Below, in pieces: positions 51,904 to 52,320 of a DNA stretch of 64,000 nt. The translations under genes were made by a program, and so were the position numbers. Numbering within the stretch: the stretch's first letter is position 1; each line of letters opens with the position of its first letter. The stretch is from sequence record NC_028448.1, one strand, 5' to 3'. The notes under the pieces were generated by a model, which was given only the letters and a program-made list of their open reading frames with translations, searched no databases and had not been told where the DNA came from. The DNA comes from Escherichia phage slur14.

Positions 51904-51948
51904 TTAGTACCTTATATAAATTATAATACATTTTATGAAGCTAAATAA

Positions 51949-52320
51949 TCAATACGGTTTAGCATCAAATTTTCTCTCAATTTCAGGCGTGAAATATAAT
52001 TCTTTACCACGTTTGGAAAAGCGACCAATAATATGATAATTATTCTTATCAAACGTAATATTACCAATATCCATAGCTTTCAACCAAATATCGATATTTC
52101 TATCCAGCTTTATGTCAAAATTCCAATACGGAGAACTATTACCGAAAATACTGCAAGCGGATTCAGTGAAACAACTGCTATAAATCTTGTCTTTAGGAAC
52201 TACTAATTGATAGACACCTTTAATAAACTGAGGACCTTGCCATTTTGGCTGTTTCGTGTCTTTTTCTAATAGAATAGGGTAATAATTAAAATTCATATTT
52301 TCCACCCCGCGGTATTTCAT
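51949..52320 (-). CDS. Hypothetical protein encoded between frd and td
   Basis: 123 aa ORF; ATG embedded in the last codons of frd (aaaaATGaaatacc); no recognisable domain. Confidence 0.5.

Follow-up and report, generated by a model that had tools for sequence, protein, structure and literature searches.

The frd–td interval was analysed in a 64,000-nt stretch of Escherichia phage slur14 (NC_028448.1), hereafter the window, in which an open reading frame (ORF) separates frd, the gene for dihydrofolate reductase, from td, the gene for thymidylate synthase. All three lie on the minus strand, and the order on that strand is frd, the ORF, td, nrdA.2, nrdA.1 and nrdA (Table 1). The run from frd to nrdA is a chain of genes that overlap or abut one another; nrdA.2 (DUF5496) and nrdA.1 (DUF4326) share 47 nt (50783..50829, minus strand), an overlap that T4 has too. 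The longest ORF for frd begins at an upstream ATG at 52927 (213 aa; additional segment 52901..52927, minus strand) and overlaps the preceding 81-aa gene. The true frd start is likely to be the T4-like MIKLVF at 52900, where the ATG overlaps the stop codon of the gene upstream.

Table 1. Features of the frd–td interval in the window and positions of the tandem td.1 paralog and the 68-aa gene in other records (coordinates of the L-numbered entries are those of the respective record).
Feature	Coordinates	Strand	Remarks
110-aa DUF7247 protein	53157..53489	−	missing in T4
81-aa ORF (PHROG 3183)	52900..53145	−	one of two genes in 52900..53489 missing in T4
frd (dihydrofolate reductase)	52286..52900	−	204 aa; Pfam DHFR_1, E = 2e-19; collinear with T4 frd to ...SVYK
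A-run, five A's	52320..52324	−	three in T4, T6 and Bas42
Direct repeat AAATGAAA, 5′ copy	52315..52322	−	includes position of ancestral frd stop (TGA)
frd C-terminal extension, 11 codons	52289..52321	−	read from the sequence
Upstream ATG, aaaATGaaa context	52318..52320	−	start of the 123-aa reading; non-conserved start
ORF as 123-aa reading	51949..52320	−	as in the ORF listing
Shine–Dalgarno-like GGGGTGGA, purine-rich (putative)	52301..52308	−	ends 4 nt before the conserved td.1 start codon
td.1 (RB32ORF229c, PHROG 1928)	51949..52296	−	115 aa; conserved start ATG 52296..52294
frd stop codon	52286..52288	−	TAA
td.1–td spacer, 45 nt	51904..51948	−	td Shine–Dalgarno-like AAGG at 51910..51913
Direct repeat AAATGAAA, 3′ copy	51898..51905	−	includes td start codon
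td (thymidylate synthase)	51043..51903	−	286 aa; ATG 51903..51901; Pfam Thymidylat_synt 1–266 of 266, E = 7e-96
Tandem td.1 paralog, L006	2317..2673
Tandem td.1 paralog, L007	1559..1993
Tandem td.1 paralog, L008	2248..2643
Tandem td.1 paralog, L009	2309..2656
Tandem td.1 paralog, L015	3332..3673
Tandem td.1 paralog, L016	3344..3688
68-aa gene (MSNKLKVKDVP...), L010 (Yersinia phage fPS-90)	1629..1835
68-aa gene, L008	2648..2854
68-aa gene, L015	3670..3879

The ORF is td.1, a known gene of T4-like phages that has been catalogued but is uncharacterised. Of the 535 phage records that match a 651-nt stretch around it, 353 do so over the full length; the stretch is 100% identical to slur03, slur08 and BGP (vB_Eco_BGP) and 98% identical to RB14. 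The encoded protein is 98% identical to T6 Td.1, and it shows the full-length similarity and the same-strand position between frd and td by which membership of the Td.1 family is defined. The gene annotated td.1 in T6 (AY262134.2, ABI48938) and RB32ORF229c of RB14, RB32 and RB51 are one and the same, with a length of 115 aa, a position between frd and td and a flanking repeat as in the window; the RB14 entry carries the remark 'flanked by 9 bp repeat'. Most records name the product a hypothetical protein, and the BASEL phages Bas42 and KarlGJung (MZ501050 and MZ501089) call it a putative homing endonuclease. The search for domains that accompanied the original prediction as a proposed check yielded none: the sole profile match of the ORF is to PHROG 1928 (E = 4e-35), to which no function is assigned in PHROG, and the window protein has no match in Pfam, NCBIfam or PADLOC. 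Full-text literature searches returned no paper mentioning td.1, RB32ORF229c, the locus tags or the frd–td interval, and td.1 is not discussed in a review of T4-related genomes, in a review of T4 mobile elements or in the mobE paper, which cites AY262134.2. In one record assigned to a different host, PV654520.1 ('Pseudomonas phage vB_PSGBLB0006', host P. aeruginosa), td.1 is 99% identical to the Escherichia Tequatrovirus gene, which suggests a mislabelled host or contamination.

To define the junctions, the region was aligned across the window, T4, Bas42, RB14, T6 and PHB12, a comparison with T4 and its relatives that had been proposed together with the original prediction. The usual td.1-bearing junction keeps the T4-type frd end, TAT AAA TGA, and the ATG within it reads ATG AAA TAA, as seen in Bas42, T6 and PHB12. 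Because AAA TAA comes next, this upstream ATG is unable to start td.1 in the commoner junction. A one-base difference upstream of the td.1 ATG, common to the window, T6 and PHB12, puts the upstream ATG in the td.1 frame, and it is this difference that gives rise to the 123-codon ORF in the window. In the annotations of RB14, RB3, T6 and Bas42, td.1 starts at the second ATG and encodes 115 aa; RB14 and RB3 share the junction type of the window. From these comparisons we infer that td.1 starts at the second ATG, at 52296, which lies 24 nt downstream of the ATG in the aaaATGaaa context, and that it encodes 115 aa. The 123-codon ORF that was originally described is complete and free of any recognisable domain, as had been stated, and it is conserved, but its start codon was misplaced.

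The same description included an 11-residue C-terminal extension of frd, which the reading of the window confirms: Frd has 204 aa in the window and 193 aa in T4, where it ends in ...SVYK. The tail is present in RB14 and RB3 and absent from T4, Bas42, T6 and PHB12. The A-run at this position contains five A's in the window, RB14 and RB3, as against three in the other aligned sequences (AAAAATGA versus AAATGA). With this shift of +2, the frd frame passes the TGA and therefore runs on for 11 more codons to a TAA that ends 8 nt beyond the td.1 ATG, which gives an 11-nt overlap between frd and td.1. In T6, by contrast, the frd stop is of the T4 type and lies 19–20 nt upstream of td.1. The extended-frd junction was found in 24 records and the T4-type frd stop followed by td.1 in 247; as read from the junction alignment, a +2 slip in the A-run produced the tail incidentally, and the tail is a minority variant. 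Sequencing error was considered as the source of the tail and ruled out, given that the same state occurs in the independently sequenced RB14, RB3, RB5–RB10, slur03, BECP11 and others.

The start codon and the overlap also bear on how the gene may be expressed. It had been proposed that td.1 captured the translational coupling to frd through the aaaATGaaa start. This proposal does not hold, because that ATG is in frame only in a minority variant and the conserved start lies 24 nt downstream; coupling of td.1 to frd at the second ATG is plausible instead. Promoter-like sites are not above background (7 versus 6.6 in shuffled sequences, the match in the td.1–td spacer included), a scan for terminators found none, and RNA structure is not significant at either junction (z = −1.0 and +0.25). 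The td.1–td spacer, of which 30 of the 45 nt are missing in PHB12, contains an AAGG 6 nt upstream of the td ATG. Because td has its own AAGG, it would not be directly coupled to frd in td.1-bearing phages, unlike in T4. In the model that we propose, td.1 is probably co-transcribed with frd, td and nrdA in the pre-replicative nucleotide-metabolism operon, ribosomes ending frd should re-initiate on td.1 at the 11-nt overlap, and td would then be initiated independently at its own AAGG site.

The T4 reference record (NC_000866) has frd at 145109..145690 and td ending at 145112, which corresponds to a 4-nt overlap (ATGA) with no gene between. The original prediction had stated this overlap and the absence of the ORF from T4, and the record bears out both; the reference does not carry the same ORF. 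The flanking genes are the same in T4 and the window, and the two sequences are identical up to GTATAT and then from AAATGAAACAATACC on. What T4 lacks is a 417-nt segment of the td.1-bearing phages (419 nt when the two extra A's are counted). On both sides of the segment lies a direct repeat, which is the 9-bp TAAATGAAA in Bas42, T6 and PHB12 and AAATGAAA at both td.1 flanks in the window; in the alignment, the T4 junction contains exactly one copy of the repeat and no remnant of td.1. T4 also lacks two further genes that the window carries between frd.1 (DUF5417, 53500..53742) and frd, namely the DUF7247 gene and the 81-aa ORF. In the metagenomic T4-like contigs L015 and L016, DUF7247 likewise lies between DUF5417 and frd and is followed by two small ORFs. 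On these comparisons, T4 appears to be reduced throughout the frd.1–td neighbourhood.

How widespread each state is was assessed in a collection of 50,697 phage records, in which, with counts biased by which phages got sequenced, tblastn detected td.1 at 90% protein identity or more and 100% coverage in about 361 records, the empty T4-type ATGA junction was found in 32 records (T4, its laboratory derivatives and a few relatives), and a 68-aa gene (PHROG 9550; identity of at least 95%) took the place of td.1 in about 135 Tequatrovirus records. The 68-aa gene forms an ATGA overlap with frd, ends in TAATG at the td start and lies directly upstream of td in the Klebsiella phage Biddle and in L015. 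Outside the T4 group, phAPEC8-like (Phapecoctavirus) phages have homologs of this gene with about 43% identity, and the label 'flagellar biosynthesis protein' that the gene carries in some records looks like an annotation error.

With Td.1 as the query, tblastn returned 579 records, 218 of them below 60% identity, and the match covers at least 80% of the protein in 578 of the 579. Homologs at 26–47% identity occur in Jiaodavirus, Kanagawavirus, Roskildevirus, Gelderlandvirus, a Mosigvirus record, unclassified Klebsiella phages and metagenomic T4-like contigs, and homologs sit between frd and td, or beside frd, in at least five other genera of Tevenvirinae. All of the distant records that were inspected have a homolog in the frd–td interval: Mineola (Jiaodavirus), PEi26 (Kanagawavirus), Cronus (Roskildevirus), STML-198 (Gelderlandvirus), Biddle, L015 and L016. 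In CHI14 and EcS1, the tblastn match adjoins frd. The Biddle homolog (about 1975..2309 of L008) is annotated from an internal Met, with 87 aa, and the open frame upstream contains the N-terminal motif IFLVKEDVIQKKW; the start of td.1 in that record is probably placed too far downstream.

A tandem paralog of td.1 (hhalign probability 99.2%, E = 2e-19) is present in PEi26, Cronus, Biddle, STML-198, L015 and L016. It precedes td.1 in Cronus and follows it in the other genera. The paralog (PEi26 ORF-252, Cronus gp170, STML-198 AFU63914) shares with td.1 the QKKW, HGxY and GRFxKxG motifs and the interval; unlike td.1, it has an insertion of ~15–20 residues (ALVIDGxxPTIDQYKRNP) after the first strand, and it does not occur in Tequatrovirus. 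When 1.84 billion representative proteins were searched exhaustively with the family profile, 22 clusters were returned, of which 20 are clusters of the family (at 50% identity), made up of stand-alone proteins of 95–116 aa. The long matches P0021 and P0023, one a fragment of a retroelement and the other a low-complexity repeat, were rejected as artefacts of repetitive sequence. Every match in a second, word-indexed search was named hypothetical. Scans of IMG/VR, which holds few Tequatrovirus contigs, gave 0, 3 and 0 matches for the three junction types.

Our main reading, to which we assign a probability of about 0.75, is that the ORF is a real 115-aa gene starting at ATG 52296 and an old resident of the frd–td interval of Tevenvirinae, not a recent insertion. 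That td.1 is old at this position follows from the homologs of 26–47% identity that share the interval and from their divergence, which tracks that of td. In pairwise comparisons of seven genomes, the identity of Td.1 goes with that of Td (Spearman 0.89; the pairs are non-independent and the p-value is nominal), whereas its correlation with Frd identity is weak (0.18). Identity to the window in the distant genera is 43–50% for Frd, 31–43% for Td.1 and 75–80% for Td. Within the close group, PHB12 has the same junctions as T6, yet its td.1 differs from those of T6 and the window by a dS of about 0.74–0.93.

The alternative, and the claim of the original prediction, is that the locus represents an accessory-gene insertion. 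A td.1 cassette from another T4-like phage would have entered an ancestral ATGA overlap by illegitimate recombination, with duplication of ~9 bp of the target, and would then have spread through Tequatrovirus. DNA is exchanged freely among T4-like phages, the direct repeat (T)AAATGAAA, which includes the td start, flanks the segment, and a repeat of 9 bp also fits a target duplication. Moreover, the 5′ copy resembles a vestigial td start (ATG AAA, then TAA) for which there is no obvious functional reason. However, AAATGAAA is a frequent gene-start motif in the window genome, with 21 copies in 64 kb versus 13.6 expected, so that two copies at a distance of 417 nt need no duplication event. The segment has the direct repeat at both ends that is expected of an insertion element, but lacks the other hallmarks: only 8-nt AT-rich inverted matches flank td.1 in place of terminal inverted repeats, and the sole ORF of the segment has no mobility domain in Pfam, so that neither a transposase nor an integrase is present. 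A recent arrival is also at odds with homologs that lie in this interval in at least five further genera and whose divergence runs parallel to that of td, with a PHB12 gene that shares the junctions at a dS of about 0.8 and with an empty junction that is limited to the 32 records around T4. We therefore regard an insertion as unlikely; the ORF-bearing state is the majority (~361 versus 32 records, subject to the sampling bias above), and the original claim was not upheld.

The simplest reading of the junctions, and the most likely one, takes the presence of td.1 as the ancestral state and has the T4 lineage losing the gene through recombination between short repeats. The original interval would have held up to three tightly packed small genes, namely td.1, the tandem td.1 paralog and the 68-aa gene, of which Tequatrovirus genomes would today retain td.1 alone, the 68-aa gene alone or, in T4, none at all. 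The ATGA overlap of T4 would be the product expected of recombination between the (T)AAATGAAA copies that flank td.1. In the window lineage, the two extra A's would have shifted frd past its old TGA, adding the 11 residues and creating the overlap with the td.1 start. If td.1 was lost in this way, T4 is a reduced outlier at frd–td, its classic overlap is probably a deletion scar, and an ancestral gene will look like an insertion when other T4-like genomes are read with T4 as the reference.

Whether the ORF is a functional gene can be judged from how it has evolved. The dN/dS ratio is 0.04–0.13 for all measurably diverged pairs except PHB12 versus L015 (0.26), with dS reaching about 0.9 in the close group; the td.1 genes of the window and PHB12 differ at 30 synonymous and 11 non-synonymous positions. 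On the evidence of these substitutions, td.1 is under purifying selection and functional at the level of sequence evolution, and the gene is widely conserved; the original prediction had named a lack of conservation as grounds for its own rejection. A non-functional ORF, either a chance frame or a decaying remnant between frd and td, could account for the missing domain match and for the fact that T4 lives without the gene. It is hardly tenable, however, in view of the low dN/dS in nearly all pairs, the conservation of the whole protein in all but one of the 579 records matched, a structure that is predicted with confidence from a small alignment and the conserved motifs of the family (LLExDxxQxxW, HGIY, GNIxFD and IIGRFxKxG).

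The structure of Td.1 was modelled with AlphaFold2. A model built from 4 sequences was unusable (pLDDT 48.6), and the model from a 23-sequence alignment (pLDDT 92.1, pTM 0.84), which was used throughout, contains eight strands and one helix. No solved structure is a significant neighbour of this model, and searches of the sequences of solved structures, with the single protein or with the family profile, gave chance-level matches only. Structural matches in BFVD were confined to uncharacterised proteins of T4-like phages, the Cronus paralog included. Among the weak, non-significant structural matches of the Td.1 model, OB-fold domains (S1, RPA, SSB, HIN and Teb1) dominate; like these, the model is a small β-rich domain with one helix, in which loops and a hairpin carry the conserved aromatic and basic residues. 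The residues that are invariant in the family are Q16, W19, G27, G91, K95 and G97, the family alignment contains no invariant Asp, Glu or His, and the pI of the members is mostly 8–9, mildly basic.

Two roles are proposed for Td.1, which we consider about equally possible. The first, a tentative reading of the predicted model, is that Td.1 might be a small, mildly basic, mostly β-strand binding protein without enzymatic activity, with either single-stranded nucleic acid or a partner protein of thymidylate or dNTP synthesis as its likely ligand. The second, similarly tentative, is that Td.1 might be a counter-defence or host-takeover accessory protein that acts outside thymidylate metabolism, its position between frd and td being merely historical. 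The gene is dispensable, as T4 lives without td.1, and it is small, with a copy number that varies by genus (0 to 2 paralogs plus the 68-aa gene); the family is confined to T4-like phages and shows no enzyme signature, all of which would suit such a protein. Counter-defence genes usually turn over faster, however, and td.1 has kept an unusually stable position under purifying selection across genera in which Frd is 43–50% identical; PADLOC contains no model that matches it, and our literature searches found no experimental report of a counter-defence role.

A bolder interpretation, which we consider improbable, is that Td.1 and its paralog constitute a previously unrecognised fold family and a conserved partner of Frd and Td, as an adaptor or regulator of the dNTP complex or as a nucleic-acid-binding regulator of the operon. 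If this were true, the family would have been overlooked in decades of T4 genetics only because T4 deleted td.1, and the textbook ATGA overlap of T4 would be a deletion scar. Whichever role applies, Td.1 is a conserved, selected and confidently foldable small family without a significant neighbour among solved structures, and in most T4-like phages of enterobacteria its gene is placed between those for dihydrofolate reductase and thymidylate synthase.

The label carried by MZ501050 and MZ501089 implies yet another identity, that of a free-standing homing endonuclease or the remnant of one, placed like the seg and mob genes of T4. Such a gene would be expected to be present in some close relatives and absent from others, as td.1 is, and td.1 lies between conserved nucleotide-metabolism genes and beside td, itself a homing target. 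However, none of 23 family members has a GIY-YIG, HNH or other Pfam match, the protein has only 115 aa, and its structural matches do not include a nuclease fold. Because no acidic or His residue is invariant and no solved structure is a significant neighbour, the data speak against Td.1 being a nuclease or any other enzyme that depends on metal, and hence against the homing-endonuclease label. Nor is the gene linked to the intron of td. The window td is uninterrupted, with neither a group I intron nor I-TevI, in contrast to T4 td, which consists of two exons joined around I-TevI; td.1 and the td intron occur together in T6 and RB3, and the window carries td.1 alone, so that these two variable features are independent. 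The distribution of td.1 is not sporadic, given its stable synteny across several genera and its co-divergence with td; the gene is under purifying selection, and the review of T4 mobile elements makes no mention of it. A homing endonuclease is thus very unlikely, and the label 'putative homing endonuclease' is unsupported and should go. Compared with the known mobile genes of these phages, td.1 resembles seg, mob and hef genes in being small, in lying between conserved genes and in being patchy among close relatives; it differs from them in having no nuclease motif or fold, in being about half their size, and in its cross-genus synteny and purifying selection.
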